Below are positions 15,463 through 36,511 of a stretch of 64,000 nt of DNA, piece after piece. The position numbers and the translations under genes were made by a program. The stretch is taken from contig CAVUKB010000007.1 in assembly GCA_963741955.1 (NCBI GenBank), positions 960,001 to 1,024,000 on the forward strand, read 5' to 3'. Under the pieces are notes generated by a model. The model saw only the letters and a list, made by a program, of their open reading frames with translations. It was not told the origin of the DNA and ran no database searches. Each line of letters opens with the position of its first letter. Position 1 is the first letter of the stretch. Origin of the DNA: an uncultured Acidobacteriota bacterium. GTDB taxonomy: Bacteria > Acidobacteriota > Thermoanaerobaculia > Gp7-AA8.

Positions 15463-15875
15463 CGGAATCTCCTGCGCGGTTCGGTGTCGGCGGCGTGAAC
15501 CGCGCTCGACACTATACCGCGTGCGAATCATCCGGTTTCCGATTTTAGGTTCACGCCGGAGATCCGTGCGTTCCGCTGTCGACGCGGAGTCGAAATTCCC
15601 GCAGGTCGCGCGAGCACACGGTGCTGCGTATGGGGAACGTGAGCCGGCTCGCGAGGCTCAGTCGTCGGTGTCGCCGATTTCAGCGGCGCGGCGGAAGACG
15701 TCTCGTATTTCATTCGCGCGCGACGCTGCACGATGGGTCTCCCCGCGGTCGACACCGTTCTGTTGAACTGCGGACGGCGCGTGATACGCTCTTCGTTTCA
15801 TCCCATGCCCGACTCCCGCCGGCGGATCCCCGTTCGGCACCGGATCGTGCTGAGTGCAGTTCCGCGGAGGTCTCG

Positions 15876-18800
15876 ATGAACATCAGGCTCAACTCGCCGC
15901 TGATCCGAACTCTGACGCTCGTGACCTTCGCGCTCACGGTTGGGGCGACCGCCCGCGCTGAAGCTCCATACTTCAGCAAGGCCTTTTCGCCTCAGGTCAT
16001 CGGGCCGGGAAGCGTGAGCACGCTGACCTTCACCATCAGTACCGCGGGGGAAGATTTTCCTGCGCCTGCCGACGATCTTGCCTTCACCGATGCGCTTCCT
16101 GCCGGGATGACTCTCGCGGCGCCGGCGATGGCCGGAACCGACTGTGCCGGAGGGGCGGTGAGTGCCCCCGACGGCGGATCGACGATCGGCTTCTCCGGTG
16201 GCCGGCTCGGGGTGGGGCTTCAGTGTCACGTCTGGGCCAACGTCACCGCTTCGACAGCCGGCACCTATACCAACGTGTCCGCCTCTCTGACGTCGGATCA
16301 GGGTGACAGCGGGACTGCCGCGGCGGACCTTACGGTGAGCTCGAGCCTCCCCCGATTCACCAAGGACTTTTCCCCTTCGACCGTGACCTTGAACCACGCC
16401 TCGACCCTGACGTTCACCATCGACGACTCCGCGATCCCGGCGTTCGTTGTCAGTCTCGGTTTTACGGACAATCTTCCGGCCGGTCTCCAGGTGGCCAGTC
16501 CGGCCAACGTCGTGAACACGTGCGGAGGCGCCGTCACCGCCACGGCCGGATCGAGCAGCATCTCTTTCGCAGGGGGATTTCTCGCCGCCAATGCGATCTG
16601 TTCGATCGCCGTGGACGTGATCCCGGTGCTCGCCGGGCAGATGGACAACGTGACCAGCGCCCTCACTTCGACCGCTGGAAATGGCGGAAAGGCATCGGCG
16701 TCGCTGCAGGTGCAGCAGAACGTTCTGGTCAAGGCGTTCACCGACGATCCGGTCGCGCCCGGAACGATGGGAACTCTGCAGTTCACGGTGACGAACTTCA
16801 ATCGATCCGACGCGATGAGCGGCGTTGCGTTCACGGACGATCTCGACGCGGCACTGAGTGGAATGGCTGCCGTCGGTCTCCCGCAGAACGACGTCTGCGG
16901 AGCGGGTTCCTCGCTCAGCGGCACCAGTCTGGTCAGTCTCACCGGGGGAACTCTCGGTGCAGGCGAATCCTGCACGTTCAGCGTGCCGTTCCAGGTGCCT
17001 GCTTCGACGAGCGCCGGAAGCTACGTGAATACCACCAGCTCCGTGTCGTACACAGTGGGGGGCGTGGGGCAGACGGGTCCCCCCGGATCCGATACGCTGC
17101 AGGTCGTCGCTTATCCATTGCTGACCAAGACGTTCACCGACGATCCGGTGGCTGCCGGCGGGACGGCGACGATGGAGTTCACGATCACCAATTCCGACCC
17201 GACGAATGCCGCCAGCGCGATCACGTTCACCGACAATCTGGCGAACATGCTCGCGGGAACGACCATCAATATGCTTCCCGCATCCGGGTTCTGTGGTGGC
17301 GGCTCGACCGCCATCCAGTACTCGCCGGCACCTGGAGAGTTCGGGCTGTTGGTGCAGGGCGCCTCGCTTCCGGCAGGAGGGAGTTGCACGTTCGATGTGG
17401 TTCTGAACGTTCCCGCAGGTGCAACGGCGGGAACGTACACGAACACGACCGCCCCGATCACGGCGACGGTCAACGCCACCAGCGTGACCGGCAAATCGGC
17501 CAGTGACGACCTCGTCGTCGCCTCGGCACCGCTGCTGAGGAAGAATTTCATCGACGATCCGGTCGAAGCCGGCAACACGGGAACCCTTCGGTTCACGCTC
17601 ACCGCGAACGCGAACGCGACGGGGAGCGTGACCGGAATCGGCTTCACCGACGACCTCGACGCCACCCTCTCCGGACTGGTGTCGACCGGCTTGCCTGTCG
17701 ACGGGTTCTGCGGCGCGGGTTCGACGTTGACCGGGACGTCGGTTCTGACGATGTCGGGCGGCATGCTGGCTCCCGGCGAGACGTGTACGTTCGACGTCGT
17801 GTTTCAGGTCCCCGCGGCTGCCTCGCCTGGAAGCTACACGAACACGACCAGCACCGTCAGTGCGATCGAGCTCGGTCTGCCGGTCACTGGAGCCGCCGCC
17901 AGCGACAGCCTGGTCGTGAGCAGACTTCAACTCACGAAGACGTTCGTCGGCGACCCGGTCGCCGCAGGAAGCAGCGTGGTGCTTCATTTCGACCTGACCA
18001 ACCAGAGCTCTCTCGGCGATTACACCAACATCGCTTTCACGGACAATCTCAGCTCCGCTCTCGCCGGACTGACGGCCACGGGGCTCCCGCTCAACGACGT
18101 CTGCGGTGTCGGCTCACAGATCACCGGCACCACCACTCTCGTATTCACCGGCGGCTCCGTCCCCGCTGGGAGCAGCTGTTCGTTCGACGTACCGCTGCAG
18201 GTGCCCGCGGCCGCCAGTGCCGGCGACTATTTCAACACCACCAGTGCCGTTGCCGCGGACTTCAATGCCAATCCTCAGACACTTTCGCCGGCGTCGGACG
18301 TTCTCTCGATCCGCGATCCGCTGACGCTGATGAAGGAATTCACGGACGACCCGGTCGCGCCGGGGGACACCGTCACGCTGCAGTTCACCATCTACGACAA
18401 CGTGGCCCAACCGGCGACCGGTATCAGCTTTACCGACGATCTCGACGCCGCGCTCTCAGGACTGGTCGCGGTCGGACTGCCGATGAACGACGTCTGCGGC
18501 GCGGGGTCGGTCCTGAGCGGAACCAGCGTGATCTCCCTGACCGGCGGCAATCTGCCGGCTTCCGGCACGTGCACGTTCCAGCTCACGCTTCAGGTTCCCG
18601 CGTCGGTTCCCGCGGGAACGTCTCCGGTCAACACCACCAGCCAGATCAGCGGGACGGTGGGCGGGAATTCATTCTCCGGTGCAGCGGCCTCGGACACGCT
18701 TCTCCTCGACTTCATCACGTTCGGTAAGGCGTTCGCCGGCGCCATCGGTGCAGGAGGAACGGTCGATCTGACGTTCACCATCGACAATCTCGATCCCTCG

Positions 18801-20729
18801 AATCCGGTCAGCGCCCTGAGTTTCACCGACGACCTCGGCGCGATGCTCAGCGGAGCCGTTGCGGTGGGACTCCCGATGAGCGACGCCTGCGGCGCAGGCT
18901 CGACGCTCTCCGGAACGTCGGTGCTGACACTGACCGGCGGCTCACTCGCCGCCGGTGGGACCTGCACCATCACCGTTCCGGTCCAGATTCCGGCGGCAGC
19001 GGCTCTCGGACCGTACACCAATACGAGCAGTGAGTTGCAGAGCGCGGGACTTCACGTGGCGGCACCCGCCACGGCGGTCCTCACCATCGAGCCGCCCCCG
19101 CTGTTCAGCAAGAGCTTCGCTCCCGCATCGATCCTGCCGGGCCAGCCGAGCACCCTGACGTTCACGATCGACGACTCGGCTGCCACAAACGCGGCCGGCG
19201 CCCTCGATTTCTCCGATGCTCTCCCTGCGGGCCTGACCGTCGCCACGCCGGCGAACGCTTCCACGACCTGCACCGGAGGAACTCTGACCGCAGCGTCGGG
19301 GAGCGGCTCGGTGAACTATGCCGGAGGGAGCGTCGCGGCGGGGTCGTCGTGCACTGTGCAGGTCGACGTCACCGCGAGCGCTGCCGGGTCGTACACGAAC
19401 GTCTCGGGTCCGCTCACCTCGTCATTCGGATCGAGTGGCACGGCGACGGCGAGCCTCCTCGTCTCGGAGGTCACGTTCGCGAAGTCATTCGTTCCCGGAC
19501 TCGCCCATGCCGGCGACACGATCCAGATGTCGTTCACTCTGACCAATCTCGATCCAGGCAACGCCGTTGCGAATCTCTCGTTCGGTGACGACCTCAACGC
19601 GATGCTCACTGGCGCGGTGGTCGCGGGTCTGCCGATGAACGACGTCTGCGGCGTCGGGTCGACTCTGTCGGGGACGTCGAACGTGACGCTGACCGGAGGC
19701 TCGCTCGCCGCCGGCGGAAGCTGCATCATCACGGTGCCGGTGCAGGTCCCTGCTGCTGCCGCTCTCGGAACCTACACCAATACCACCAGTGATCTTCTCC
19801 GCAGCGGGGTGCATCTCGCGAATCCCGCGTCGGCGAACCTCATCGTGGCGCTCGTACCGGCGTTCACCAAGACGTTCGCGCCAGCCGTGATCCCTTCGGG
19901 TCAGGTCAGCACCCTGACCTTCACGATCGACAACTCTGCGAGCGGAATTGCCGCGGACAACCTGGAGTTCAGCGATTCATTGCCCGCCGGGATGGTCATT
20001 GCGTCCCCAGCGAATGCCGCCACGACCTGCACTGGCGGGACCCTGACCGCCACCGCGGGGAGCGGCTCCGTGAGCTACAGCGGAGGAAGCGTTGCTGCAG
20101 CCGCGACGTGTACGGTGCAGACCGACGTGACGGCGAGCGGAGCCGGAACGTTCAGCAATACCTCCGGCGCGCTGACCTCGTCGCTCGGGTCGAGCGGCAC
20201 CGCGACGGCGGATCTCATCGTCTCACAGGTGACGTTCACGAAGTCGTTCTCTCCGACCGCCGTCCACCCCGGCGACACGGTGCAGCTCTCGTTCACTCTG
20301 ACCAACCTCGATCCGACCAACGCCGTTTCGGATCTCAGCTTCAGCGACGACCTCGATGCGATGATTCCCGGGCTGGTTGCGACGGGACTCCCGCAGAGCG
20401 ATGTCTGCGGCGCCGGATCACAGCTCAGCGGAACCTCTGTGGTCACCCTGACCGGAGGAACCCTACCCGCCGGCGGCCTCTGCACGTTCGCCCTGAATCT
20501 GGTCGTACCTGCAGGCACCGCCGATGGCACGTATGTCAATCACACCAGCAGCCTGACGTTCCGTGCCGGAGGTTCTCCCGTCGATGCAGGACCGGCGAGC
20601 GTCGCCGCGGCGAACCTGCAGGTCTCGACCGCAGTGATCGGAATTCCGGCTCTGAGCACGCACATGCTTCTACTGCTCGGGCTCCTGATGTCCATGGCTG
20701 CGCTACTGGTGGTGAATTTTCGGAAATGA
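15876..20729 (+). CDS. Large surface protein with 12 Ig-like/DUF11-like repeats and an IPTL-CTERM-type sorting signal
   Basis: GGAGG RBS and signal peptide. 12 units starting xxKxF...TLxFT, with FTDxL and two Cys each. C-terminus IPALSTHMLLLLGLLMSMAALLVVNFRK. Confidence 0.85.
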   Translation: MNIRLNSPLIRTLTLVTFALTVGATARAEAPYFSKAFSPQVIGPGSVSTLTFTISTAGEDFPAPADDLAFTDALPAGMTLAAPAMAGTDCAGGAVSAPDGGSTIGFSGGRLGVGLQCHVWANVTASTAGTYTNVSASLTSDQGDSGTAAADLTVSSSLPRFTKDFSPSTVTLNHASTLTFTIDDSAIPAFVVSLGFTDNLPAGLQVASPANVVNTCGGAVTATAGSSSISFAGGFLAANAICSIAVDVIPVLAGQMDNVTSALTSTAGNGGKASASLQVQQNVLVKAFTDDPVAPGTMGTLQFTVTNFNRSDAMSGVAFTDDLDAALSGMAAVGLPQNDVCGAGSSLSGTSLVSLTGGTLGAGESCTFSVPFQVPASTSAGSYVNTTSSVSYTVGGVGQTGPPGSDTLQVVAYPLLTKTFTDDPVAAGGTATMEFTITNSDPTNAASAITFTDNLANMLAGTTINMLPASGFCGGGSTAIQYSPAPGEFGLLVQGASLPAGGSCTFDVVLNVPAGATAGTYTNTTAPITATVNATSVTGKSASDDLVVASAPLLRKNFIDDPVEAGNTGTLRFTLTANANATGSVTGIGFTDDLDATLSGLVSTGLPVDGFCGAGSTLTGTSVLTMSGGMLAPGETCTFDVVFQVPAAASPGSYTNTTSTVSAIELGLPVTGAAASDSLVVSRLQLTKTFVGDPVAAGSSVVLHFDLTNQSSLGDYTNIAFTDNLSSALAGLTATGLPLNDVCGVGSQITGTTTLVFTGGSVPAGSSCSFDVPLQVPAAASAGDYFNTTSAVAADFNANPQTLSPASDVLSIRDPLTLMKEFTDDPVAPGDTVTLQFTIYDNVAQPATGISFTDDLDAALSGLVAVGLPMNDVCGAGSVLSGTSVISLTGGNLPASGTCTFQLTLQVPASVPAGTSPVNTTSQISGTVGGNSFSGAAASDTLLLDFITFGKAFAGAIGAGGTVDLTFTIDNLDPSNPVSALSFTDDLGAMLSGAVAVGLPMSDACGAGSTLSGTSVLTLTGGSLAAGGTCTITVPVQIPAAAALGPYTNTSSELQSAGLHVAAPATAVLTIEPPPLFSKSFAPASILPGQPSTLTFTIDDSAATNAAGALDFSDALPAGLTVATPANASTTCTGGTLTAASGSGSVNYAGGSVAAGSSCTVQVDVTASAAGSYTNVSGPLTSSFGSSGTATASLLVSEVTFAKSFVPGLAHAGDTIQMSFTLTNLDPGNAVANLSFGDDLNAMLTGAVVAGLPMNDVCGVGSTLSGTSNVTLTGGSLAAGGSCIITVPVQVPAAAALGTYTNTTSDLLRSGVHLANPASANLIVALVPAFTKTFAPAVIPSGQVSTLTFTIDNSASGIAADNLEFSDSLPAGMVIASPANAATTCTGGTLTATAGSGSVSYSGGSVAAAATCTVQTDVTASGAGTFSNTSGALTSSLGSSGTATADLIVSQVTFTKSFSPTAVHPGDTVQLSFTLTNLDPTNAVSDLSFSDDLDAMIPGLVATGLPQSDVCGAGSQLSGTSVVTLTGGTLPAGGLCTFALNLVVPAGTADGTYVNHTSSLTFRAGGSPVDAGPASVAAANLQVSTAVIGIPALSTHMLLLLGLLMSMAALLVVNFRK

Positions 20730-22559: not shown

Positions 22560-23354
22560 TCAGGCAGCCGGCGCGGCCTGCTGTCTCGTACCGAGACGAA
22601 TCGCTTTCACGACGGCGATGATCCCGAAGATTACGAAGACCAACGCCCAGATCAGGGCGAGGATGTCGACGACGATCGCTCCGATCGCGTCGGTGATGCT
22701 GACGAGGAAAGAAGGGACGATTCCGTGCAGGAACGCGATCAGAATCGATGCGATGATGGAGGTCGCGTACATCACGAGAAGTCCGTATTGTCTAACGAAG
22801 CGCTGCTGGGCCAGGAGAAGGCACGCGCCGGCTCCGAGCTTCAGGAAAAGGATGAGAGAGAGGATGACGGCGGCTCCACCGCGGTCGAACGATCCGTAAA
22901 GTGCCATATACGCGATCGTTCCGAACGGGACGGCGAGAAAAAGGGTCAGCCGGACGGTCAGCTCGATGAGCAGGACAGGAATCTTCATCAGCGTCGCGAC
23001 AAGGACGAGGAACCCGGCGATCAGACCGATCAGCCCCTGAGTGCGGCCGTGAATGCGGTCTCCAACGACGATCGGAAGGGCAAGAAGGACAACGGTGAGT
23101 AGAAAGAGTCCATCCACGTAAGCCATGGTGTGAATGGCGAGACCGGGAGGGGTGTCGTGGGGTGTCGTCGCATCGCTCAGGTTCTTTTGGAGCTCCTGCT
23201 GTTCTTCGGGAGTCAAGCCCGCCAGATTGGCCGGCGCCGTTCGGGGAGGAGGGGGAACCTGCAGAAGAAGCGTCTCTCCGAGCTCCATGAGCACGGCCAG
23301 TGCGATCAGGACGAGAGCTAAGAACAGGAACGGCTTGCGCATCGAGTCGATCAT
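22560..23354 (-). CDS. Polytopic (~6-7 TM) membrane protein, last gene of the CIS-associated run
   Basis: Multiple long hydrophobic segments. ATGA overlap with the upstream lipoprotein gene. GGAGG RBS. Confidence 0.8.
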   Translation of the reverse strand: MIDSMRKPFLFLALVLIALAVLMELGETLLLQVPPPPRTAPANLAGLTPEEQQELQKNLSDATTPHDTPPGLAIHTMAYVDGLFLLTVVLLALPIVVGDRIHGRTQGLIGLIAGFLVLVATLMKIPVLLIELTVRLTLFLAVPFGTIAYMALYGSFDRGGAAVILSLILFLKLGAGACLLLAQQRFVRQYGLLVMYATSIIASILIAFLHGIVPSFLVSITDAIGAIVVDILALIWALVFVIFGIIAVVKAIRLGTRQQAAPAA

Positions 23355-23770
23355 CGGTCCTCCGCGACGAGACCGCAGTCGGCGCACCGTATGAACAAAG
23401 AGCCTCCGTCTCGCCGGATCGGGATGTGGGCAGGATCTTCCGGAGTAACCTTCATTCGAATGGCGTCACTGCTCCCCGCCGGGGTGTATCGGATCTCTGC
23501 CTCGCTGCCGGCCACCAGATGCAGGTGCGCTTTCCTGATCATCGACGAGGATTTCGCGACGGTCGCAACGCATCGGCCATCGACGTTCAGCAATCCCCCG
23601 ACCGCACAGGGGCCGGAGATCTCCGACATCCTGACCGGCCTGGAAGGGGCGATGCGTGCCAGTGTCTTCAGAATCCGTGGCGGATGTCGAACGTCGATCG
23701 TCCGCGAGTCGCCTCCACAAGCGACGGCGAGCGCGATCAGACTGATGGCGAGGAAGACATGACGTCGCAT
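23351..23770 (-). CDS. Putative lipoprotein (CIS-associated)
   Basis: MRRHVFLAISLIALAVAC lipobox signal, with four further Cys. GGAGG RBS. Confidence 0.7.
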   Translation of the reverse strand: MRRHVFLAISLIALAVACGGDSRTIDVRHPPRILKTLARIAPSRPVRMSEISGPCAVGGLLNVDGRCVATVAKSSSMIRKAHLHLVAGSEAEIRYTPAGSSDAIRMKVTPEDPAHIPIRRDGGSLFIRCADCGLVAEDR

Positions 23771-23785
23771 CGTCCCTCCCGATCG

Positions 23786-23992
23786 TCAATGGTGCATGAT
23801 GAGTCCGGCGATGCTCGAGCCGATGACGACCAGCCCGATCACGACCATCAGGATCGTGTATCCGGGTGAACTGGCCGGCACCGCACCGCTCTCTCCTCTC
23901 GCGTTGCGAACGATGAGCGGCCCCCACTTGAAAATTCCGGCGAGGATGAAAACCACGCCGACGACGATTCCTATGATTGCTCCGACGACCAT
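23786..23992 (-). CDS. Small 2-TM membrane protein
   Basis: 68 aa with two hydrophobic helices. Strong AGGAGGAGG RBS. Confidence 0.7.
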   Translation of the reverse strand: MVVGAIIGIVVGVVFILAGIFKWGPLIVRNARGESGAVPASSPGYTILMVVIGLVVIGSSIAGLIMHH

Positions 23993-24309: not shown

Positions 24310-25335
24310 TCAGTGAGACGGTAAGGTCATGCTCTTCTCCCTGAATATCTCGGCCTGTCTCTTCAAGAGTGGCGACATCTCTGAAATGTGTGGATCGAGG
24401 AGCCAGGGGTGGAACCGATTCTGTGCGATCACCACGGTCACATGACTCTGCCTGGCGACCTTCGAACCGGCCGGCGGTCTCAGGCCGATCACGGTTCCGA
24501 ACGATCCGTTCGCCACCACCGGAATGGGATCGGGAATGAGGCCGGCCTGATAGATCCGGAGCATTGCGGTGTCTCCCTTCAGGCCGTTGACCCGCGGGAC
24601 TGCAACTTCGTCTGCGACTTCCTCTTCCGAGACCGCCTGCTCGAGCCGAGCGGCCTCGGCATCCGAGAGTCGAGTCGCTTCGTCTTTCGCGAGATCGAGA
24701 GCGACCTGGCGGCGTGTCGCGACGGTCAATGTCACCAGACTGCCTTTCCCGGTCCTCTCGCCCTCACCGGGACTCTGATCGAGCACGATTCCTGCATCGA
24801 CTGTAGCGTCCTTCCGTCCGTCGAGGCCGACCTGAAATCCGGTTTCCTGTAGAGTTCTGATCGCGGCGATGAACGGCTCCCCGTTGACGCCCGGTACTAC
24901 TTTTCTCTGAAGCAGGTACCACACACTGATTCCGACCACGATCAGCACGACGGCGGCAGCGACCCAGATCCACCATAGTGACCTCTGGCCTTCGGCCACC
25001 TTGAAGTGGACCGTCGGACCCTCGTCGTACTCTTCGCCCGTCCTGCGAAGCGCCGAAGTCATGTCGAAGCGGAAGGCGTAAGTGCCGGCCTTGGTTCCCT
25101 GCGGGACCGCCACGTTCACGTCGAACTGATTGACTCCATTCGGCGTGAAGTCACGTTCGCTGTCTCCAGCGATGGTCAACCATTCCGCTTTGGTCGATCC
25201 CTGCGCGACGACTTTGGCCATGGCGCGATCGATCTGGCCGCTCACATTGGTGACCGTATATGCAACGGTCGTCTTCCCCGTAGCGTCCAGAGTCAGTGAC
25301 TGTGAGGGTGTGGTGATTGTGTATTTATGCGCCAT
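24310..25335 (-). CDS. Single-pass membrane protein: N-terminal Ig-like domain, TM, two PASTA-like domains
   Basis: TM WWIWVAAAVVLIVVGISVWYLL. PASTA-like VPGVNG...GIVLDQSPGEG...VTLTVA and VPRVNG...GTVIGLRPPAGSKV...VTVVIA. Confidence 0.8.
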   Translation of the reverse strand: MAHKYTITTPSQSLTLDATGKTTVAYTVTNVSGQIDRAMAKVVAQGSTKAEWLTIAGDSERDFTPNGVNQFDVNVAVPQGTKAGTYAFRFDMTSALRRTGEEYDEGPTVHFKVAEGQRSLWWIWVAAAVVLIVVGISVWYLLQRKVVPGVNGEPFIAAIRTLQETGFQVGLDGRKDATVDAGIVLDQSPGEGERTGKGSLVTLTVATRRQVALDLAKDEATRLSDAEAARLEQAVSEEEVADEVAVPRVNGLKGDTAMLRIYQAGLIPDPIPVVANGSFGTVIGLRPPAGSKVARQSHVTVVIAQNRFHPWLLDPHISEMSPLLKRQAEIFREKSMTLPSH

Positions 25336-25380
25336 GGCGGTTCTCCTGATCTCTCATTCGAGTTCATTCGTCGTGTCGCC

Positions 25381-26196
25381 TCATCCCAGCACTCGCCGGC
25401 TGGCAGCCAGAGCGTTGTCTCGGGCGGTCTGGTCGCGCGTCGCGGGAGGGACACAGACGTGATCGTCCGGCGACGCGTCCCGCCAAACGAACCCTTGGCG
25501 GCAGGAGTCCGGCCCCCAGGGCCCTCCATGAGGCGACCGGCGGCCGGCCGCGAGCTCGTTGTCGCGCGCTGCCTGCGCTCGCGTCTGAGGGGTGACGCAG
25601 ACGTGATCTTCGGGGAAGGCTTCACGCCAGACGAATCCTGTCTTGCAGGTATCCGGTCCATACGGAAGAACCGGAATCACTCTCGCCGGGTCGAATGTAT
25701 GAGTCGGGCCCGACGGCGGCGCAGGTACCGGGTCGGGGATCGGTGCGGGCCCCGGAGGATGCGGTCGAAAGGCGAGGTAACCTCCGACTCCCAGGACCAC
25801 GATTACGAGCGCTGCCGCGACCCAGATCCACCACCGGCTGTCGGGCTTCTTCGCGGTTGCACTCGCCGCGAACTTCACGATCGGCCCCTCTTCATGGTCT
25901 TCACCGGTTTTGCGTGCGGAGACGACGTCGAGGCGAAAGGCATACGAGCCGGCTGGTGTGCCGGAGGGGAGCTCGATGGCGACCACGTATTGATTCACTC
26001 CATTCACCGCGAACTCGCGGTCGCTCTCCCCTGCGATTGTCAACCAGGCGGCCTGCGTGGCGGCCTGTGGGACGACCAGAGCCATTCCGCGCTCCGGTGC
26101 CCCACTGACGTTGGTCACGGTGAATGCAATCTCGCCTTTACCGTTCGCGTCGAGCTGAATCGATTCTTGCGGTGTGGTGATCGTGAATTTGCGCAT
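25381..26196 (-). CDS. Single-pass membrane protein: N-terminal Ig-like domain, TM, Pro linker, duplicated Cys-rich repeat
   Basis: N-terminus paralogous to 24310-25335. TM WWIWVAAALVIVVLGVGGYL. Two GPDxCxxGFVWRxAxPxDHVCV repeats. Confidence 0.8.
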   Translation of the reverse strand: MRKFTITTPQESIQLDANGKGEIAFTVTNVSGAPERGMALVVPQAATQAAWLTIAGESDREFAVNGVNQYVVAIELPSGTPAGSYAFRLDVVSARKTGEDHEEGPIVKFAASATAKKPDSRWWIWVAAALVIVVLGVGGYLAFRPHPPGPAPIPDPVPAPPSGPTHTFDPARVIPVLPYGPDTCKTGFVWREAFPEDHVCVTPQTRAQAARDNELAAGRRSPHGGPWGPDSCRQGFVWRDASPDDHVCVPPATRDQTARDNALAASRRVLG

Positions 26197-26717
26197 CACT
26201 CCTCCCTGCTGGGACGTGTGACGTCGATCGTGCACGTCACATAGGCTGGTTTCTCCATCGCGACGATTCTTTCAATCAGATCGCGATGGGTCGTGGCTTC
26301 GGCCGGAATGTGGAGGTCGAAGTGGAACGGTCTCGTTCCTTCCTCGATGACGAATTCTCGACTGCCGGTGGCAACTGCGAGGATCTCGAGCAGCCCCTTG
26401 GTCGTGCCGCGCCACTTCCCGAGACGAGCCGCGGCGGCGACCAGCTCGCGCAGGCGCCCGGTCCCGGCACTGATACCGGCGGTGCCATCGGAGCGAAGCT
26501 CGAGGATCGGCTCCAGGCCGAGCCAGGACGCGAGAACGGGGACGAATGCATCCGGCGCGGTGAACGGGTTCAGCACGGCGCTGAATGTGGAGAGCACCCG
26601 TTCCGATGGGGCGTGCATCGATTCCATCACCCCGAGCAGTGCGGCAAGGGGAGGAGAGAAGTCCACCGTGCGCCGGATCACGGTCGGAAGGAGCTGGGCG
26701 ATCTGCTCCTGCTTCAT
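26196..26717 (-). CDS. CIS baseplate wedge / phage tail protein I-like
   Basis: LNPFTAPDAFVPVLASWLG, WRGTTKGL and EKPAYV motifs typical of P2 gpI-like proteins. Overlaps the baseplate J stop. Confidence 0.8.
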   Translation of the reverse strand: MKQEQIAQLLPTVIRRTVDFSPPLAALLGVMESMHAPSERVLSTFSAVLNPFTAPDAFVPVLASWLGLEPILELRSDGTAGISAGTGRLRELVAAAARLGKWRGTTKGLLEILAVATGSREFVIEEGTRPFHFDLHIPAEATTHRDLIERIVAMEKPAYVTCTIDVTRPSREE

Positions 26718-29284
26718 CCGTTCTGCTCCCCTTCGACCACGATGTCGATCTGGTGCTCCGCCGTGCAGAAGAGCCAGGTGGAAGGAATGGTGACCTTGTC
26801 CGTGAACGCGGGTGACGAGCAGGGTTGAAACGTCGTGCCCCCGTCGACGCTCCGGTAGACCCCGCGGGGCCCGGCTGCCAGGAGCCAGTGTCCGGAAGGA
26901 TCGACCGCGACGGCGTAGACCGGCTCGAAACGCGTCAACTCCTGAATGGGGAGATTCGAGGAGACCTCGCTCGTGCTCCATCGTGCATTCGGCACCGACG
27001 TGTCGAGTGTGGCGACGCCGGCGCGTTGTGTCGCGGCATGAACGACCGAGCCGTAAAAGGCGAGGGACTGGCAACTTCCTCCATCCCACCCCTCGGAGAA
27101 CGGGACCCACTCTCCGCCTCCCTCCGGCGTTTCCCAGATGCGCCAGCGATGACAGCCCTTCCCCACCGCGCCGGGCGCGGCAACGCCCGCCCAGAGAAAG
27201 GCGTTCGGTCCTTCACTCTGCGTGGCCAGGACCCGTATGTCTTCTCCACTCAGTCCGATCGGCCGGAACGTGCCGGGGCGTCCGTTCTCGTTGGAGAGGT
27301 AGATTCCTCCGGTGTTGCGCGCTGCGACTGCGACGCTCGTCGCCCCCAGAGCACCGACGGAGGCCGCGACGCTCCAGAACCCGAGGTCCTGATTCGCAGA
27401 GTCGACCAGCACCTGGACCGCCGTCGCTCCTTCCTGCATCGAGAGCTCGTACAGACCCTTGATCGTGGCGAGCAGAAGGACCGGAGATCCATCCCGGCGA
27501 GTCCATTCGATGTCGTCCACTCCGTGTGCGATGTTCACGCTCTCCCGCCAGGTCTCACCGCAGTCGGTGGAGATGCGCACCACGGACGATTTGCGATCCC
27601 GGGCGACGCTGATTGCGGTAACCAGCCCCGGCGCCGCCGGATGCGACTCGATCATCGAAGCGTTCTCGCCCGGAAAGCGGCCGGACGTCTCCCATCCTTC
27701 GCCGGAGTCGGTGGTGCGGAAGAAGGAGTCCCCTGCCGCGGCATAGAAGGTCCGCGGCTGGTATGCGTCCGTGGCGACGCTGTTGACGTCTCGCTCCGGA
27801 ACCCGATCCACGACCAGCCGGACGTCATCCGCATATCGCACGGCGGGATCCGCGAGGAGAAGGTCGTAGATGTGGCCGATGCGAAGCGGGTCGCCGAAAT
27901 GCCACCCGGTCACCCTCCGTGGTGACGGAAGAGGAGTCAGGGTCTGGTGCAGTCGATCGATGATCCTCTCATGAACGCGAGCCGGATCTTCACCGCGGCG
28001 AATCACCACGTGGGCTTCGACCCGAATCGGTTTACAGCGCGCCCATGCCGCAACGACCTTCGTCCCCAACGGGCGGCGTTCATCGAGTGCGTGCTGCGCA
28101 CGATGCAGAGCCTCGTCAGTCTGATACTCGGCGAGAACCGCTTCGGTGACGCCCGCGCGACGCGCCTCGATCGGAATGCTCGGGACCATGAGCACCTCCA
28201 CCGTTCCAGGGCGGGCGTGCCTCCAGAGGTCTGCGCTGGTCAGGGCGATGGCTCGCTCGATGGCCCCGGACGAATTGGCCGCCACCCGCTCGAAATCGCG
28301 CGCCGTGACCGCTCGCTCGAGTGAGTGCAGCTCCTGGGGGCCACGCAACATCGCGTTCTCGTCGGACTCTGCATCGCGTCCGCCGACCGCCGGAGCAGGA
28401 TTGGTCACCTTGACCAGCGGGATCGCGTCCTTCAACACGGTGAGGGAATTCGCGACCACGTTTCCCGCGGCACCGCCGCCGCGGCGGTACCACAGCCGGA
28501 TCTCGGCCCCGCTGTCCGGAATCGCTCCCAGGGTTCCCGCGGTCTCGGCCAGCGTGTTGTCGGGTCTGCGCGCATGCACGGCCGACGCGAACGTGATGGT
28601 TCCGGCGAGCCGGTCCGTGATGTAGACGTAGGGGTCGCCGCCGGTCTCGGCGAAACTGGGAACCTCTCTCCACACCCGATAGCGCTTCCCTTCGTATGCG
28701 CGGATCGACGCACGGTCCGGCGCTTCCGCATCCTCGATCTGCACGCCGACCACGAGGTCGAGGTCATCACCGGTCGGCGCCACGATCGGCGGACGTTTCG
28801 CGCGGACGCGCAGTCCAGGCAGGCCACTCCCGACTCCGGCCAGCTCCGCGTCGACGTGATCGCAGTGGTATGCGACGACGTCGCCGGCTGCCGTGCCGGG
28901 AGCCAGCTCGAGCGGCTCGGAGGTGGTGAAGACCGGCGCCGATGACGTCCCGCTGCGTGCCAGCGTGATCCGAGTTCCGCGCGGGATCGTCACTCCGCCG
29001 CCTTCCTTCTCCCGCGTGAATCGAAGCCGGACCATCGCTGCGGAAGGCGGCCGCAGCGTCACGCCGACGAGACGAAGAAACTCGATGTACGCGCTCGCCG
29101 GCAGCTGGTTCAGCCGATACAGCATCACCTCGGTCAGATAGGCGAAGACATCGACCAGCACCATTCCGGGGTCGCTCACGGACCTGTCGGTCCAGTCCGG
29201 CGCCAGCCGGTCGATGACCTTGTTCGCCTCGATGACGAGCTGGTCGAATGTTCGATCGTCGAGTTTCGGTGGCGAGAGCGGCAT
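26714..29284 (-). CDS. CIS baseplate J-like (Afp11-like) protein with an inserted BNR beta-propeller
   Basis: MPLSPPKLDDRTF...WTDRSVSDPG, GGGAAGNV, GGRDAES and RAVTARDFE. BNR motifs RTTDSGEGW, ISTDCGETW and RSVDGGTTF. Confidence 0.9.
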   Translation of the reverse strand: MPLSPPKLDDRTFDQLVIEANKVIDRLAPDWTDRSVSDPGMVLVDVFAYLTEVMLYRLNQLPASAYIEFLRLVGVTLRPPSAAMVRLRFTREKEGGGVTIPRGTRITLARSGTSSAPVFTTSEPLELAPGTAAGDVVAYHCDHVDAELAGVGSGLPGLRVRAKRPPIVAPTGDDLDLVVGVQIEDAEAPDRASIRAYEGKRYRVWREVPSFAETGGDPYVYITDRLAGTITFASAVHARRPDNTLAETAGTLGAIPDSGAEIRLWYRRGGGAAGNVVANSLTVLKDAIPLVKVTNPAPAVGGRDAESDENAMLRGPQELHSLERAVTARDFERVAANSSGAIERAIALTSADLWRHARPGTVEVLMVPSIPIEARRAGVTEAVLAEYQTDEALHRAQHALDERRPLGTKVVAAWARCKPIRVEAHVVIRRGEDPARVHERIIDRLHQTLTPLPSPRRVTGWHFGDPLRIGHIYDLLLADPAVRYADDVRLVVDRVPERDVNSVATDAYQPRTFYAAAGDSFFRTTDSGEGWETSGRFPGENASMIESHPAAPGLVTAISVARDRKSSVVRISTDCGETWRESVNIAHGVDDIEWTRRDGSPVLLLATIKGLYELSMQEGATAVQVLVDSANQDLGFWSVAASVGALGATSVAVAARNTGGIYLSNENGRPGTFRPIGLSGEDIRVLATQSEGPNAFLWAGVAAPGAVGKGCHRWRIWETPEGGGEWVPFSEGWDGGSCQSLAFYGSVVHAATQRAGVATLDTSVPNARWSTSEVSSNLPIQELTRFEPVYAVAVDPSGHWLLAAGPRGVYRSVDGGTTFQPCSSPAFTDKVTIPSTWLFCTAEHQIDIVVEGEQNG

Positions 29285-29704
29285 TCAGGATTCCTCCCCC
29301 GTCAGTGACATCGAGATGGCGATCTCGTCGACCCGTCGTGTGGCGCGGACGCGGTATTCCAGGCGGATGTCGAGCCTGGCCGGTTCGAACGGGTTCCGGC
29401 CGGCGTCGATCTCCGTGATCTCCACCCGTGGCTCGAACCTTTCGATGGCCTGCCGCACGTAGTGAATCGCGAGCCCTGCAGTGGTGTCGTCGTTCGGCCA
29501 GAACATCAGCCGATTGAGGCTGCAGCCGTAGGCCGGACGCATCACCCGCTCGCCATTGCGGGTGGTGAGCAGCAGCAGAATCGCCTGCCGTACGGCCGCC
29601 TGATTCGAAGTCATCGTGACGCCACCGGTCGGAGAGACGTGAAGTCCGGGGCTCTCGTCGTCGAGGTCCGGATGCGAGAATTCGAGCGTGCGGTACATTC
29701 TCAT
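29285..29704 (-). CDS. GPW/gp25 family baseplate protein (Afp9-like)
   Basis: VRQAILLLLTTRNGERVMRPAYGC...AIERFEPRV. Confidence 0.9.
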   Translation of the reverse strand: MRMYRTLEFSHPDLDDESPGLHVSPTGGVTMTSNQAAVRQAILLLLTTRNGERVMRPAYGCSLNRLMFWPNDDTTAGLAIHYVRQAIERFEPRVEITEIDAGRNPFEPARLDIRLEYRVRATRRVDEIAISMSLTGEES

Positions 29705-30045
29705 GCTGGTTGCTCCGAGACGAACGACTGCCCGGCCTGCCGCACTTCGTACCTCACGACGCCGGGAGGGGTCCCGTCCGTGAAGCCGGTAACCTCGTCG
29801 AGACAGATTCGCCGTCCCTCGATGAGCAGAAGCGGCGAGTATCCGGTGATGACAGTCAGAGTCATCGTGCACGGCTTGATGGTCGGAGCGGTATTCGGAC
29901 ACCCCGAGATCGAACGGTTCTCGGGATCGCGCTCGACCAGCACCTTGCGTAGCCCGATCGTGACCAGATCCTGTGTGGCCTCGATCTTCACGTGTCCCAG
30001 CTCGTGTGTGCAGACGATGGCGGCGTCTTCGGTCAGAAGGAGCAT
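29701..30045 (-). CDS. PAAR-like (DUF4280-type) spike tip protein
   Basis: 114 aa directly after VgrG, with the metal-binding pattern CTH...GCP...KPC. Confidence 0.7.
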   Translation of the reverse strand: MLLLTEDAAIVCTHELGHVKIEATQDLVTIGLRKVLVERDPENRSISGCPNTAPTIKPCTMTLTVITGYSPLLLIEGRRICLDEVTGFTDGTPPGVVRYEVRQAGQSFVSEQPA

Positions 30046-30047
30046 GC

Positions 30048-31538
30048 TCAACTCCCCCTCTCGAAATTCACCAGGCTGCCGCGCACGGTGATGGTGTGTC
30101 CCGACGCGTCGAGCTCGAGATCTCCGCTGGCGTGGATGGTGAGCTTCTCGGGCGCCAGCTCGACGTAGCTTCCCCCTTCGTCCTGCATCCGGATCGACCG
30201 GGAGAGATCGTCGAACATCAGCTTCTGTCCGCCGGGAGTGAGAAGACTGCATCGCCTCACCCGGCCCCCTTCGATGCCCGAGTCGGGTGGGCCATCGGGA
30301 TACAGTCCTCCGATCACGAAGCCGATCCCGGGCTCACCTCGAGGGAACATCGCCACCACGCGATCCTCCACGTCCGGAAGGGAGATCCATCCCTTGGCCG
30401 TGCCGGCACCGGTGGTGAGCACCGGCAGCCACTCGGTCTCGAGATCACCGCACGTCGGAAGGGACAGCTTCACGCGTCCGCGGCGCTCCGGGTCCTCCAC
30501 GCTCGTGACCACGCCGATGACCGCAGTGGCGGCGCGAGCGGTCGTGCGCGCGCGCGGCATTTCGCTCGAGATCCGAGAGATGAAGCCGTGCGCACGGCTG
30601 ACGATGTGATCGACCGTGGTGACGACCGCGCGATGGCCGTCGCCGTCCGTCACTCCCTCCACCTCCACCGCCGCTCCCGGTGTGAGCTCTGGATCTCCGA
30701 CGCAGGTTGCCCAGAGCCCCACCTCGCCTGCGGCGCGTCGCGCGAGGTCGCCGTTCGCGAGAGCTGACGCCTGTGCCTCGTCCGACAGCAGCTCGTCGGT
30801 CAGTGTCCGTTCGGTCGCCGCAACGGTCGCGAGCTCCTGTGGTACGGTCCGCGCGCGCTCGACACGCGCGTCATGCACCTCGACGAGACAGGGGTCCCAA
30901 CCGATGACCGTCACGCTGTCACATACGGTCTCCGCATTGAGCTCCAGGCGGACCTCGCGAAGGTTCTCGCCGAGCGTGAGCGGTCGTACGTCGTCGCCGG
31001 CCTGAAGCGGGAAGAGGCGGAGCGTGTCTCGTTCCACGAAGAAGTAGAGAGCGGAGCGCTCGCAGACGTCGGTGAGAAAATCGAGATCGGTTTGCCGATT
31101 CTGGATCAATCGTGTGAACGAGGGACCGTCAGGTCCCCGCACATCGAGTCCAAGGGGAGCCACGAGCTCTCGCGCGAGCGAGCCGGCAGTGAACCGGACC
31201 TGCGCCGCTACCCGCTGGGTCTTGCGCAGCCGATGCAGCACGTCATACGCGCGGAGCCGTACCTTCCGTCCCTCCGCGCGAGTCCACGAGTGCTCGAGTG
31301 CCGTGACCTCTCCGGAGAAGAGGGGAGGACGATCGCCGATCGTGACCTCCAGGGCCGCGCCGATCGAAGGAGCCGGCCCCCTCTCGCCGAGGACCTCCGA
31401 GAATGTGATCTCACAGGCCGTGGCGAGGGAGAGACGCTGGCGCACGAGAATAGAGGTCAACGCGTTGGCCCATCCGGCCGGTACGGCCGAGCCATCGAGT
31501 GCGATGTGAACCGCGGGAAGTGTCGCAACTGCGGTCAT
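30048..31538 (-). CDS. vgrG: VgrG/gp27-gp5-like spike protein (Afp8-like)
   Basis: QNRQTDLDFL gp27-like hub, OB-fold motif IGVVTSVEDPERRGRVKL...LPDVEDRVVAMF, and a short beta-helix C-terminus. Confidence 0.9.
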   Translation of the reverse strand: MTAVATLPAVHIALDGSAVPAGWANALTSILVRQRLSLATACEITFSEVLGERGPAPSIGAALEVTIGDRPPLFSGEVTALEHSWTRAEGRKVRLRAYDVLHRLRKTQRVAAQVRFTAGSLARELVAPLGLDVRGPDGPSFTRLIQNRQTDLDFLTDVCERSALYFFVERDTLRLFPLQAGDDVRPLTLGENLREVRLELNAETVCDSVTVIGWDPCLVEVHDARVERARTVPQELATVAATERTLTDELLSDEAQASALANGDLARRAAGEVGLWATCVGDPELTPGAAVEVEGVTDGDGHRAVVTTVDHIVSRAHGFISRISSEMPRARTTARAATAVIGVVTSVEDPERRGRVKLSLPTCGDLETEWLPVLTTGAGTAKGWISLPDVEDRVVAMFPRGEPGIGFVIGGLYPDGPPDSGIEGGRVRRCSLLTPGGQKLMFDDLSRSIRMQDEGGSYVELAPEKLTIHASGDLELDASGHTITVRGSLVNFERGS

Positions 31539-32239
31539 GCTCTCTCCAGCTCGTCGCGTGGCGGCATCCGGAGCAACTCTCCTGGAGTCAACCGCAGTGG
31601 ATCCTCGACGCCGTTGAGTGCTGCGATCGCTTTCCACAGAGAGGCGTCTCCGTAATAGCGATAGGCGATCTCGTCGAGACGTGCGACGGCAGGCGATTCG
31701 GAGGTCTCTCGAGGAGACTCAGGCGCGATTTCGTGGACGTGCGTCTCCTCCGGGCTTCCTGCCAGGAGGGGAGTCGGCGGCTCTGCCGAATTGTCGTCCT
31801 CGACGCGCAGGAGTCTCATCCGCAGCCACGAGCGCCCCGGTGCACCTTCGCCGTCGAACGACTCCAGCCGCTCTGCAATCGCGGCGATGACCGCACGCAC
31901 ATTCCACGTCTTTCCCCACACCAGGCGGACGAAGCGCGCGTTGCTCGCTCTCGAGTCGCCGTACGCTTCGCTCAGTCGCCAGAGCGGCCGGGTCAGTGTG
32001 CGGACGTCGGTGACCGGAGCAGGTCCCTCGGCGAGAGAGACGTCGAAGAGGAGATCGACGGTCAGCTCCGTCGTCCCGCCTCCACTCTGCAGCAACGGGT
32101 CGTCGATCACGCCTGGTTGGCTTCCCGCGCCGAGCAGAGGTCGAATGCCCGCCCAGCGCCGTATCACCACACTCTCAGGGTTGAGCATGCAGGCGATCCG
32201 TTCGCCGGTCTGTTCGACGAGAAACGCTACGCGGTCCAC
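31535..32239 (-). CDS. CIS tube initiator with LysM-like C-terminus (Afp7-like)
   Basis: CMLNPE, LTVDLLFD, VRLVWG and RLDEIAYRYYGDASLWKAIAALNGVEDP. Confidence 0.85.
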   Translation of the reverse strand: MDRVAFLVEQTGERIACMLNPESVVIRRWAGIRPLLGAGSQPGVIDDPLLQSGGGTTELTVDLLFDVSLAEGPAPVTDVRTLTRPLWRLSEAYGDSRASNARFVRLVWGKTWNVRAVIAAIAERLESFDGEGAPGRSWLRMRLLRVEDDNSAEPPTPLLAGSPEETHVHEIAPESPRETSESPAVARLDEIAYRYYGDASLWKAIAALNGVEDPLRLTPGELLRMPPRDELERA

Positions 32240-33189
32240 GCGGTCCCCCGTTGCTCTTCATCGAGACGCCGCAGATGTTCGCCGTCAACCGCGCCCTCCT
32301 CGCGGTCCCTGATGGTCGTCGGGATGAAAGGAGGGAGGTCCGGGAGCGCCGGCCACCGGTCGTTCAGGTCCGGTGGCGGAGGCAGCTCCGTCACCGCCCG
32401 GCGGGACCGAACCGGCGGAGCGGTGTCGACCGACGGCCACTGCAGACGCGGAGGCTCCGGTTCCGGAGCGGAAAGGGAGAGCGACATGGACGTGCGAGAA
32501 GTCCCGGCACTCGAGGCAAGAGGCGGCACTTCTTCTGCGGGATTCGACCGGGTCGCGGTGGGCGTCTGCGCCGGCGCTTCCGTGTGCAATCGCGGAGGTT
32601 CGGTGCGGGGCGCCGGTTCAGGCTTCCGTGTTCGTGGCAGTGTCGAAGCATCTCGGGGCAGAGGCGGCTTCGCCGTTGTGTGCTGCTGCTGGTTCCGCGG
32701 TGAATCCGGAGGGACGGAGTCCCCCCGGGTGGCGCGGGACCGCGCTTTCAGAAACGTCGCGATGCGAGGGGGGCGAGAAGCACGATCCCGTACGACGGCG
32801 GGAGATCCGTCTCTACGTGTTCGTGGCTCGTCCGAGTGTTCTTCGCGATCGCCGGTTGCTCTCGAGAGTCGAAAGATCCGCATCGACGTTTTCGATGAGG
32901 GGCGAGGCGTGTTACATCGCCTCTCGGGAGTGGATGTCGACGGACCCGGATTCGGCGGCTCGGGCCGGAATCGTGGCGGTACAGGAGACGCCGGACCACC
33001 CTCGTACTTCAACAGCTGCGGCGCGCTCCTGCGCACGCGCTCGAGCCAGCGTTCCGGCGGCCCGGCGTCGAACGACGTCGGCGATGGATCGGCGGGAGGT
33101 GAGGGGCGCTCCTCGAGCGCCTCCAAGCCGCGTATGAGTGCACGCCGCAGAGCGCGGCGCAGTGCGAGCCAGAGATCGTGACCGCTCAT
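32227..33189 (-). CDS. Pro/Arg-rich low-complexity CIS protein (possible tape-measure analogue)
   Basis: Overlaps both neighbouring genes. Mostly disordered, with ordered-looking ends GPPERWLERVRRSAP and WPALPD...HLRRLDEEQRG. Confidence 0.65.
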   Translation of the reverse strand: MSGHDLWLALRRALRRALIRGLEALEERPSPPADPSPTSFDAGPPERWLERVRRSAPQLLKYEGGPASPVPPRFRPEPPNPGPSTSTPERRCNTPRPSSKTSMRIFRLSRATGDREEHSDEPRTRRDGSPAVVRDRASRPPRIATFLKARSRATRGDSVPPDSPRNQQQHTTAKPPLPRDASTLPRTRKPEPAPRTEPPRLHTEAPAQTPTATRSNPAEEVPPLASSAGTSRTSMSLSLSAPEPEPPRLQWPSVDTAPPVRSRRAVTELPPPPDLNDRWPALPDLPPFIPTTIRDREEGAVDGEHLRRLDEEQRGTAWTA

Positions 33190-33680
33190 GCCACCGCTCC
33201 TCCTGCCGGTGCCACGCGCTCGAGGGTCTCGTAGACGATGGTCATCGACTCGATCGCGATCTCGCGCGCCATCGCGTCGAGAGGGGCGGCGTTCCACCTC
33301 GAAACCCACGCCTGCGCCAGATTCCAGCGCATCACTTCGCGTGCACCATCGCTGTCGTAGAGGACGATCGAGACGTTGCGCCGCTCGACCTTCCCATTGA
33401 CGCCGCTCAGCATCCAGTTCCACAGATCTGCGGAACTGGTTAGCCCGTAACGGAGCGTGATGTCGGCGTACTCGACGGGCCCGGGGATCCGTCGCACGAT
33501 CCGGCTCCGTCCCTCGGCATAGCGGATCGCATGCACCGATGCCCCCATCCCGCTGCATTCAGTGAACGCGGCGTCCGCAACGCCCTGGATCTCGACTCGA
33601 AAGTTGTAGCCGCGGTAAGGATCATTGACCGTACCGGTGTTTCCTTTGCTCGCGTTCTTGGTCGCGTCCTGATCAGGCAT
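33186..33680 (-). CDS. CIS inner tube protein (T4 gp19/Afp1-5-like)
   Basis: DPYRGYNFRVEI...FTECSG...ITLRYG...WNLAQAWVSRW...IAIESMTIVYE. Confidence 0.93.
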   Translation of the reverse strand: MPDQDATKNASKGNTGTVNDPYRGYNFRVEIQGVADAAFTECSGMGASVHAIRYAEGRSRIVRRIPGPVEYADITLRYGLTSSADLWNWMLSGVNGKVERRNVSIVLYDSDGAREVMRWNLAQAWVSRWNAAPLDAMAREIAIESMTIVYETLERVAPAGGAVA

Positions 33681-35589: not shown

Positions 35590-36022
35590 GTGTTCTCCAT
35601 TCGAGATCCTGGGGTGCGTTCGCAAACGGATCGCGTCCGGGCTTTGTGTGGCCGGGACCCACCCCGTCTCGCGAGCCTCGTCAGGCGCCGGTGTGCCACC
35701 GTCTGGACCTACGTCTCGTGAGAGGTGCGTACGACGGTCGAGCCGAAGGCCTCATACCCCTGAGTCCGTCCAGGGCAAACGGCTGAATTCCCACCCTGAC
35801 GCGCCGCCCGTGAGCGTCATGAATATTTGCTATCCGTACAAACTGGGGTGAGACGCGGAGATCTTCAAGGAGAAAAAGTTGGTGTAACCTGCTGAATTCG
35901 AGCTGCGACTTCAGCGCGGGCCGCGTGTGGGCGCTTTCCCTCGGTGTGGGGGCGCGTGTGGAGCGAACTCATACACGCGAATCGTCAGGACTCGCGCCCA
36001 TTGCCGATACCATCGAATCGAT

Positions 36023-36236: not shown

Positions 36237-36506
36237 ATGCCTCTGAACATCAAGAATCCGGAAGTGGAACGTCTCGTGACGGAGCTCGCGGTCGAGACCG
36301 GCGAATCGAAGACTGAGGTAGTTCGGAGGGCGCTGCAGGAACGGCGGGCACGGCTCGCGCACGGTCGTCGCGTCGCGGACCTGAAGAGCATCCGAAACTT
36401 CCTCGAGCGGGAGATATGGAATCAGGTGCCTCGTTCACTTCAGGGACGACGGCTTTCGAAGAGAAAAGCCGAGAAGATTCTTGGATACGGGCGTGATGGA
36501 GTCTAG
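36237..36506 (+). CDS. vapB: Type II antitoxin VapB (Rv0623/PSK-like)
   Basis: MPLNIKNPEVERLVTELA...GESKTEVVRRAL, immediately upstream of the PIN toxin. Confidence 0.9.
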   Translation: MPLNIKNPEVERLVTELAVETGESKTEVVRRALQERRARLAHGRRVADLKSIRNFLEREIWNQVPRSLQGRRLSKRKAEKILGYGRDGV

Positions 36507-36511
36507 CCGGC

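Follow-up and report, generated by a model that had tools for sequence, protein, structure and literature searches.

How does a cytoplasmic contractile injection system (CIS) locate the membrane, and what triggers it? CisA of Streptomyces coelicolor is the only characterised adaptor. The question is raised again by a locus in the stretch of DNA analysed here (the window; 64,000 nucleotides of a contig, CAVUKB010000007.1, from an uncultured Acidobacteriota bacterium), in which a compact CIS operon is followed by two paralogous genes for bitopic proteins, P0001 and bitopic protein 2. We suggest, with a probability of roughly one half, that both are resident membrane proteins whose cytoplasmic N-terminal domain (N-domain) docks the CIS and whose exported modules bind envelope polymers, in a tether or trigger role. 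The pair itself is a real and well-supported feature, and the N-domain family to which it belongs is a second, far more diverse candidate adaptor.

The two products share their first part and differ in the rest. P0001 consists of a beta-sandwich (residues 1-115), a transmembrane (TM) helix (residues ~120-143) and two PASTA domains with an acidic helical linker between them. Bitopic protein 2 has the same N-domain and TM helix, continued by a Pro-rich linker and a ~45-residue two-Cys repeat that occurs twice. In a BLASTP comparison 77 of 136 positions are identical (57%, E 6e-50, residues 4-136), a similarity that far exceeds chance. The aligned region runs through the N-domain into the TM helix, which opens with WWIWVAAA in either protein, and the same search gives no significant alignment past the helix. 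Pfam recognises PASTA (PF03793) in two stretches of P0001 (65 bits against a cut-off of 23.2, E 5.9e-18), which makes it a PASTA-domain protein, and none in bitopic protein 2, whose two-Cys repeats match no Pfam family. Neither paralogue has a hydrophobic N-terminal stretch. An earlier reading made from the DNA letters alone (the sequence-only reading) had described this arrangement, with a shared beta-rich domain that runs into the same TM start without a signal peptide and with PASTA-like domains in one outer part and a duplicated Cys-rich domain in the other, and the comparison bears it out. The second gene most plausibly starts with the ATG at 26196, the A of which is shared with the TGA stop of the baseplate gene cis12 (a TGATG overlap); a longer GTG form reaches 26235. 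These two are the only copies of the N-domain in the source genome, which is 99% complete.

The N-domain defines a large unnamed family. A profile of the N-domain and TM helix, built from 7 sequences, was searched against 1.84 billion representatives; at thresholds of E<=1e-3, E<=1e-10 and E<=1e-30 it matched 2260, 1692 and 335 proteins, respectively. The best 150 of the 2260 are 152-910 residues long, and in each the match starts within the first ~30 residues. Near-invariant positions in an alignment of 142 rows are F5, T8, F26, T27, N30, W52, G57, R61, F63, P78, G84, R89, D91, G106, P107, V109 and W122. The AlphaFold2 model made from this alignment (predicted local distance difference test, pLDDT, 94.4) folds residues 5-113 into a beta-sandwich and residues 121-142 into a helix. 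Foldseek relates the sandwich to generic PapD-like, ASH, MSP, GH123-N and FixG-type folds of the PDB only (best E 2e-6), and a fold search of BFVD returned generic Ig-like domains only. Against NPCBM_assoc/NEW3 (PF10633) the window proteins score 17-19 bits at a cut-off of 24.4, and a few family members reach 24-28; PHROGs and NCBIfam gave no match for the N-domain. We regard this family as new and as specific to one CIS sub-lineage.

A bitopic N-in/C-out topology is strongly suggested for these proteins, because the lack of a signal peptide, the charges that flank the helix, the distribution of cysteines, the extracytoplasmic kind of the outer modules and an alignment to PknB-type kinases all agree. 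A signal-peptide-like N-terminus is absent from 155 family proteins, with one borderline exception. The TM helix has a mean Kyte-Doolittle value of 2.8 over 19 residues, and its conserved form is FPWWI/WWIWV with ~20 apolar residues after it. Net charge is +1.35 in the 15 residues before the helix versus +0.41 after it; by the sum of Lys and Arg the N side exceeds the C side in 81 proteins, ties with it in 44 and falls short of it in 30. N-domains are free of cysteine in 137 of the 155, whereas the two-Cys repeat has conserved Cys pairs. All recognisable C-terminal modules in the 147 proteins scanned (see below) are of the extracytoplasmic kind. The TM helix and PASTA part of P0001 aligns to the same part of PknB-type kinases (NF033483, E 4.9e-14, far below the model cut-off). 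The flank charges, the outer modules and this alignment favour the orientation that the sequence-only reading had proposed.

Beyond the helix the modules are exchanged across the family. We scanned the C-termini of 147 of the 150 top N-domain representatives with Pfam and counted the results by hand. PASTA follows the TM helix in 73 of the 147, in 1-8 copies each. Other modules are found in 15 (Tectonin, B_lectin, Laminin_G_3, DUF5648, HYDIN/ASH Ig, thioredoxin, DUF11, PKD, NPCBM, CARDB, PD40, and a weak lactophage receptor-binding protein head); 58 are without a Pfam family, and one has a NEW3 match in the N-domain alone. CBM96 and CARDB occur behind PASTA too. Mapped on a FastTree phylogeny of the N-domain (142 sequences, 118 columns), the PASTA or non-PASTA state changes at least 40 times; shuffled labels give 47.6 +/- 3.2 changes, with 40 or fewer in 5 of 500 shuffles. 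The ectodomain type is thus almost uncoupled from the N-domain tree, which is short and poorly resolved and inflates the count of changes. The modularity noted in the window, with one N-domain before one TM helix and interchanged outer modules, holds across the family by both the catalogue and the tree.

The two-Cys repeat of bitopic protein 2 (25381-25700 of the window, minus strand) is itself a widespread unnamed module, found at E<=1e-3 in 591 proteins among 764 candidates. In bitopic protein 2 the two copies read GPD[TS]C..GFVWR[ED]A...DHVCV..TR.Q.ARDN.LAA.RR; another form of the pattern is GPDTC.QGFVWREA..DHVCV.P.TR.QAA.DN..AA.RR. Many carriers have signal-peptide-like starts, in line with an exported ectodomain, the repeat occurs in up to several tandem copies, and in some proteins it is accompanied by SH3_3, ricin, TIR_2 or PASTA. 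One protein (P0255) unites the N-domain, TM helix, PASTA and two-Cys repeat. The model of the repeat (pLDDT 86.5) comprises a short hairpin and a 17-residue helix per repeat; a Foldseek search of the PDB with it gave nothing at E<=1e-3, and VIA wide scores did not exceed Z 3.6.

The family is tied to the CIS by gene order. Loci with N-domain genes were collected from a scan of one genome per species (16 loci) and from a metagenome scan with a 35-row alignment (79 loci), and were annotated by tblastn with the CIS proteins of the window and by hidden Markov models (HMMs) of the N-domain, Cis12 and Cis11. The 16 genome loci belong to metagenome-assembled genomes (MAGs) of Acidobacteriota, one of Chloroflexia, two of Gammaproteobacteria and one of Propionicimonas. 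In 44 of the 95 loci cis12 lies directly upstream of the first N-domain gene; 35 loci have less than 700 bp of upstream sequence and are untestable in this respect, so that the share is 44 of 60 testable loci. The gaps between the two genes are 15 to 1388 bp, half of them under ~60 bp, and the start of the N-domain gene overlaps the cis12 stop both in the window and in L016, the locus of Propionicimonas. The arrays comprise 1-5 N-domain genes each, and the 193 copies are co-oriented without exception. The long gaps hold another membrane protein, and in some Pyrinomonadaceae loci a 392-residue polytopic membrane protein lies between cis12 and the first N-domain gene (L003:8725-9903). The sequence-only reading had placed the pair directly after the baseplate wedge gene. 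The genes do adjoin the baseplate genes, but the immediate upstream gene is cis12, which is P2 gpI-like, and not the large wedge gene. Its own counter-scenario, a family mostly away from CIS loci, is not what we find: the family is mostly at CIS loci, directly after cis12.

Copies also occur apart from such arrays. Five genomes have dispersed copies, and in four of them a cis11 orthologue is present elsewhere (48-49% identity); three of the five (G606-G608) have 7 copies each, of which 3-4 lie beside the CIS and the others are dispersed. Copies of one locus share a median N-domain identity of 72% (HMM columns, 117 pairs), versus 45% between loci. The nearest relative of a copy is in the same locus for 16 of 116 copies, a figure that partly reflects near-duplicate loci in the sample.

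Co-occurrence is seen at the level of the CIS subtype as well. A CIS sheath (E<=1e-20) is present in 62 of 401 Actinomycetes genomes, and in only 3 of the 62 (G305, G974 and G891) is it a full-length short sheath like that of the window (51-54% identity). Strong N-domain matches are found in exactly these three (E 4e-37 to 2e-18). The other 59, which have the longer Streptomyces-type sheath, gave no N-domain or marginal matches in very long open reading frames (ORFs). Scans that scored 13 candidates per genome found the family in none of 300 other genomes of the phylum of the window and in none of 300 genomes from that of G301, which shows at most that its distribution is patchy.

The machine encoded beside the pair (Table 1) resembles a solved one. 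The best PDB matches of the sheath are chains of 8bky and 9gtp (E 6e-98). The Cis11 profile matches 9gtp_1K (E 1e-97, profile positions 118-494), and the best match of the Cis12 profile is 9gtp_E, a 190-residue chain of the S. coelicolor CIS baseplate (E 3.5e-7). 9GTP is described as the baseplate of CIS-Sc (PMC12237407). Judged by these matches, the closest solved relative of this compact CIS is the cytoplasmic CIS of Streptomyces coelicolor (CIS-Sc), and the CIS of the window is probably cytoplasmic and Streptomyces-like. Cis11 continues at residues ~495-856 with a BNR/Sortilin-Vps10-like, propeller-type extension, present in 17 of 17 aligned orthologues; it falls outside the matched part (residues 265-614) of the 652-residue S. 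coelicolor Cis11 chain. We regard this extension as a candidate docking site. No genes for an AAA+ ATPase, a cap or a tape-measure protein were recognised in the operon, the rest of the genome not having been searched for them. For the first operon gene and the ORF between tube and tube initiator, PHROGs, NCBIfam and sequence searches of the PDB gave no match.

Table 1. Genes of the CIS locus and neighbouring features of the window (aa, amino acids)
Feature	Position	Strand	Remarks
Polytopic membrane protein (P0275)	22560..23387	-	275 aa; just beyond the N-domain gene arrays
Small exported/lipoprotein-like protein (P0276)	23351..23770	-	
Single-TM ORF	23786..23992	-	68 aa; between the bitopic genes and P0275
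Bitopic protein 1 (P0001)	24310..25335	-	341 aa
Bitopic protein 2	25381..26196	-	271 aa, counted from the ATG at 26196
cis12	26196..26717	-	Tail_P2_I / TIGR02242; stop overlaps the start of bitopic gene 2
cis11	26714..29284	-	Baseplate_J, 856 aa; extra C-terminal ~360-aa BNR/Sortilin-like region
cis9, gp25-like baseplate protein	29285..29902	-	
cis8, VgrG-like spike	30048..31637	-	
CIS_tube family protein (tube initiator)	31535..32239	-	
ORF between tube and tube initiator	32227..33180	-	poorly conserved; no family found
Inner tube, gp19-like	33186..33680	-	
Sheath	33673..34917	-	short (414 aa)
First operon gene	34918..35625	-	weak CarboxypepD_reg-like C-terminus; kept upstream of the sheath in related loci
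Collagen-triple-helix protein	9515..11455	+	BclA-like C-terminal domain
BNR/Sortilin-repeat protein	12169..15531	-	1120 aa, large secreted type, near the locus
DUF7933 protein	15621..20729	+	1702 aa, large secreted type, near the locus; 12 DUF7933 stretches and DUF11/NEW3 domains
Antitoxin/PIN-toxin-like gene pair and AbiEii-type nucleotidyltransferase toxin fragment	36237..36901 and 37433..37906	+ and -	just upstream of the CIS operon; pair judged from the starts of the sequences; fragment PF08843, E 5e-7

Further membrane proteins accompany the N-domain genes. For P0275 neither PHROGs, NCBIfam nor Pfam gave a family. Where a cis12-linked locus offers at least 4 kb of downstream sequence, a homologue of P0275 lies just past the final N-domain gene in 17 of 20 cases; of 13 other loci only 2 have one, and both are cut contigs. 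Homologues are also present in actinobacterial loci. P0276 has no PHROGs or NCBIfam match. In L055, L057 and L080 weak relatives of it occupy the long gap that separates cis12 from the N-domain gene, and the equivalent place in L016 and L110 is taken by a small exported protein. The order of N-domain gene(s), small exported protein and polytopic membrane protein recurs in the window, L016 and L109/L110. We take P0275 to be a probable additional membrane component of this CIS subtype.

From these observations we propose the following mechanism. The two proteins would reside in the inner membrane, with the Ig-like N-domain in the cytoplasm, the TM helix serving as a signal anchor and the ectodomain exported. 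Outside, the ectodomains (PASTA, and a repeat that may be stabilised by disulfides) would bind an envelope polymer, in the case of PASTA peptidoglycan or lipid II-type ligands. Inside, the shared N-domain would contact the CIS particle, most likely at the wedge periphery of the baseplate, with Cis12, the BNR extension of Cis11 or both as its partner, because of the stop/start coupling to cis12, the tail-fibre position of the genes and the precedent of CisA. In this way the proteins may stand in for tail fibres and hold the particle at the cytoplasmic membrane or trigger it there. The interchangeable ectodomains would set where or when the machine acts, several of them per genome serving different conditions. 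The reading of the pair as N-in/C-out modular adaptors is partly supported; the outer domains may sense cues, as the sequence-only reading proposed, or may simply bind glycans of the envelope.

Several points weigh against this proposal. The PapD/ASH/NEW3-type fold of the N-domain has no specific match to any baseplate-binding module in the PDB or BFVD. In 16 of the 60 testable loci there is no cis12 upstream, and 7 of these have at least 6.9 kb of upstream sequence. One Chloroflexia MAG with an N-domain copy (G303) gave no match to the Cis11 query from the window. Sequence patterns and likeness to the window protein guided the choice of the loci, which are therefore an uneven sample of the family. 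In the genome scans 10-13 candidates were scored per genome (10 in the Actinomycetes), which makes a family not found there weak evidence. Finally, the nearest look-alikes, the Streptomyces proteins Sco4256-4258, are read as effectors whose deletion leaves the tube lumen mostly empty (PMC10066040).

This last point leads to the rival in which the pair is cargo of the Sco4256-4258 kind. The N-domain would then be a module for loading or recognition, and the TM helix and lectin-like end would act on a membrane after firing and kill the producer or the target. We hold this to be unlikely, though it has substantial arguments on its side. Sco4256, Sco4257 and Sco4258 have the same layout, with a single TM helix, highly similar N-termini and a ricin-type C-terminus, and are toxic in E. 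coli; they were reported in 47 of 94 CIS-positive Streptomyces and as restricted to CIS-positive strains, and with all three deleted ~85% of tubes are empty and CIS mutants are phenocopied, hence their published name of CIS-associated effectors (PMC10066040). A Streptomyces-type locus among our data has two such paralogues (L106:203-3119) with a ~215-residue N-terminal region, a TM helix near residue 220 and ChW and ricin ends; at least 1148 proteins make up their family, and of the 120 matches listed nearly all bear Streptomyces names. An hhalign comparison of the N-domain with this N-terminus gave a probability of 50% (E 1.6e-4, 85 columns, N-terminal in both), against 14.7% and 35 columns for an unrelated control, a NEW3/DUF11 protein of the window, and the N-domain HMM finds the two paralogues at E 1-1.4 in hmmsearch; homology of the two N-termini is thus possible, at a borderline level. 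Arrays and dispersed orphan copies also recall the genetics of polymorphic effectors. However, the ectodomains (PASTA, the disulfide repeat, carbohydrate-binding modules) are binding modules that need export, none of the 147 proteins scanned has an enzyme or toxin domain, and a Sec-inserted bitopic protein is incompatible with a place in the tube lumen. Toxicity in E. coli does not discriminate, since CisA is reported as toxic there too (PMC12237407). The lumen cargo described for the closely related S. lividans particle is a tape-measure-like protein, and that description does not mention Sco4256/4257 (PMC13277306). The genes here also abut cis12 with a stop/start overlap, whereas those of the Streptomyces-type locus form a separate divergent unit.

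Two other explanations leave out the cargo role. The pair could sense the envelope or act as regulators, with a logic like that of PknB or of anti-sigma factors; co-regulated with the CIS but not bound to it, the proteins would signal envelope damage to another cytoplasmic partner. PASTA is indeed the classic sensor of bitopic kinases, to which the TM and PASTA part aligns; the TM region has weak, sub-threshold matches to an anti-sigma model, and some copies are far from any CIS gene. The N-domain, however, is a plain Ig-like sandwich with no catalytic or DNA/sigma-binding signature, family members in the Actinomycetes sample are confined to genomes with this CIS subtype, and the operon coupling to cis12 is tight, so we consider this explanation improbable. 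Tail-fibre equivalents of a released, extracellular CIS are still harder to accept and seem to us very improbable. Here the N-domain would plug into the baseplate, the C-termini would bind target cells and the helix would be no anchor. The gene position is the usual place of tail fibres (PMC12237407), and the variable C-terminal binding domains recall receptor-binding proteins; but the helix is strongly hydrophobic and conserved, the model has no trimeric fibre-like fold, there is no PHROG match, and the locus has two more conserved membrane proteins.

Docking of resident membrane proteins on the CIS is the explanation that we prefer, and it can be extended to a bolder form, which is tentative and somewhat doubtful. 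The family may be a set of plug-and-play receptors for cytoplasmic CIS, in which an Ig-like plug sits on the wedge, interchangeable periplasmic sensor or lectin modules, PASTA foremost, couple the state of the envelope (for example peptidoglycan or lipid II damage) to firing, and several receptors per genome, some of them encoded off the locus, compete for a single machine; Sco4256-4258 would then be distant members and not cargo. CIS-associated single-TM proteins (CisA, Sco4256-4258) are already known, and what is new here is a large unnamed modular bitopic family in one CIS sub-lineage. Its well-folded cytoplasmic N-domain suits binding and structural work. The natural swaps of ectodomains give hints of what the signals are, in the case of PASTA the condition of the cell wall, and the family bears on whether the single-TM effectors of Streptomyces are cargo or membrane partners.

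Last, the pair can be compared with known systems. We found no literature that links CIS with PASTA domains, or with Acidobacteria, baseplates and transmembrane proteins together; on CIS membrane anchors we found only the work on CisA, thylakoid CIS, archaeal systems and type VI secretion systems (T6SS). The PASTA Ser/Thr kinases PknB/Stk1 likewise have a cytoplasmic module, a single TM helix and outer PASTA repeats, whereas the proteins described here have no kinase domain and an Ig-like sandwich as the cytoplasmic module. Hbor_38620 of a haloarchaeal T6SS-like CIS is described as a clade-specific putative membrane anchor with 6 TM helices (PMC11566945). It is similarly a lineage-specific membrane protein tied to one CIS clade and proposed to anchor the baseplate; however, with its 6 TM helices, a ~150-residue cytoplasmic domain and no variable ectodomain it is closer to P0275 than to the bitopic proteins.

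CisA (SCO4242) is described as bitopic, N-in/C-out and encoded after the baseplate genes; it is needed for contraction and function, is reported as absent from purified particles, and has a ~285-residue, largely unstructured N-terminus that its authors predict to contact Cis11 (PMC12237407). It was reported in 75 of 120 actinomycete CIS genomes, and a Chloroflexota/Deinococcota lineage is reported to be without close CisA homologues (PMC12237407, PMC12998442). The sequence-only reading had called the pair reminiscent of CisA. Position and topology do match, as the genes come straight after the baseplate genes in a CIS-Sc-like cluster, CIS-Sc being the nearest lineage, and the ectodomain is of a sugar-binding type. 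The N-terminal architecture and the ectodomain, however, differ: in place of the long unstructured segment there is a compact 115-residue sandwich (pLDDT 94), CisA having been compared by its description only, and CisA is a single copy with no swapped ectodomains reported, whereas arrays are found here. By architecture the bitopic proteins are not CisA homologues. The Streptomyces-type locus also encodes a protein in the CisA position (L105:5879-7354) with a Zn-ribbon, a TM helix and an F5/8-like end, and an AAA+ ATPase gene adjoins its two paralogues; the Zn-ribbon and F5/8-like parts are absent from the proteins of the window.

The closest published analogue, which the sequence-only reading did not name, is Sco4256-4258 and not CisA. 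Both are paralogous sets in a CIS cluster with a conserved N-terminus, one TM helix and a variable carbohydrate-binding or lectin-type C-terminus, and the first N-terminal domain of the Streptomyces proteins is likewise a NEW3/Cep192_D3-like sandwich. They differ in the length of the N-terminal region, ~215 residues (probably two domains) versus ~115 here; in gene position, upstream of the sheath in a divergent unit versus after cis12; in the C-termini, which are ricin, ChW and PG_binding_1 there and mainly PASTA here; and in the published role of Sco4256-4258, which is that of cargo.

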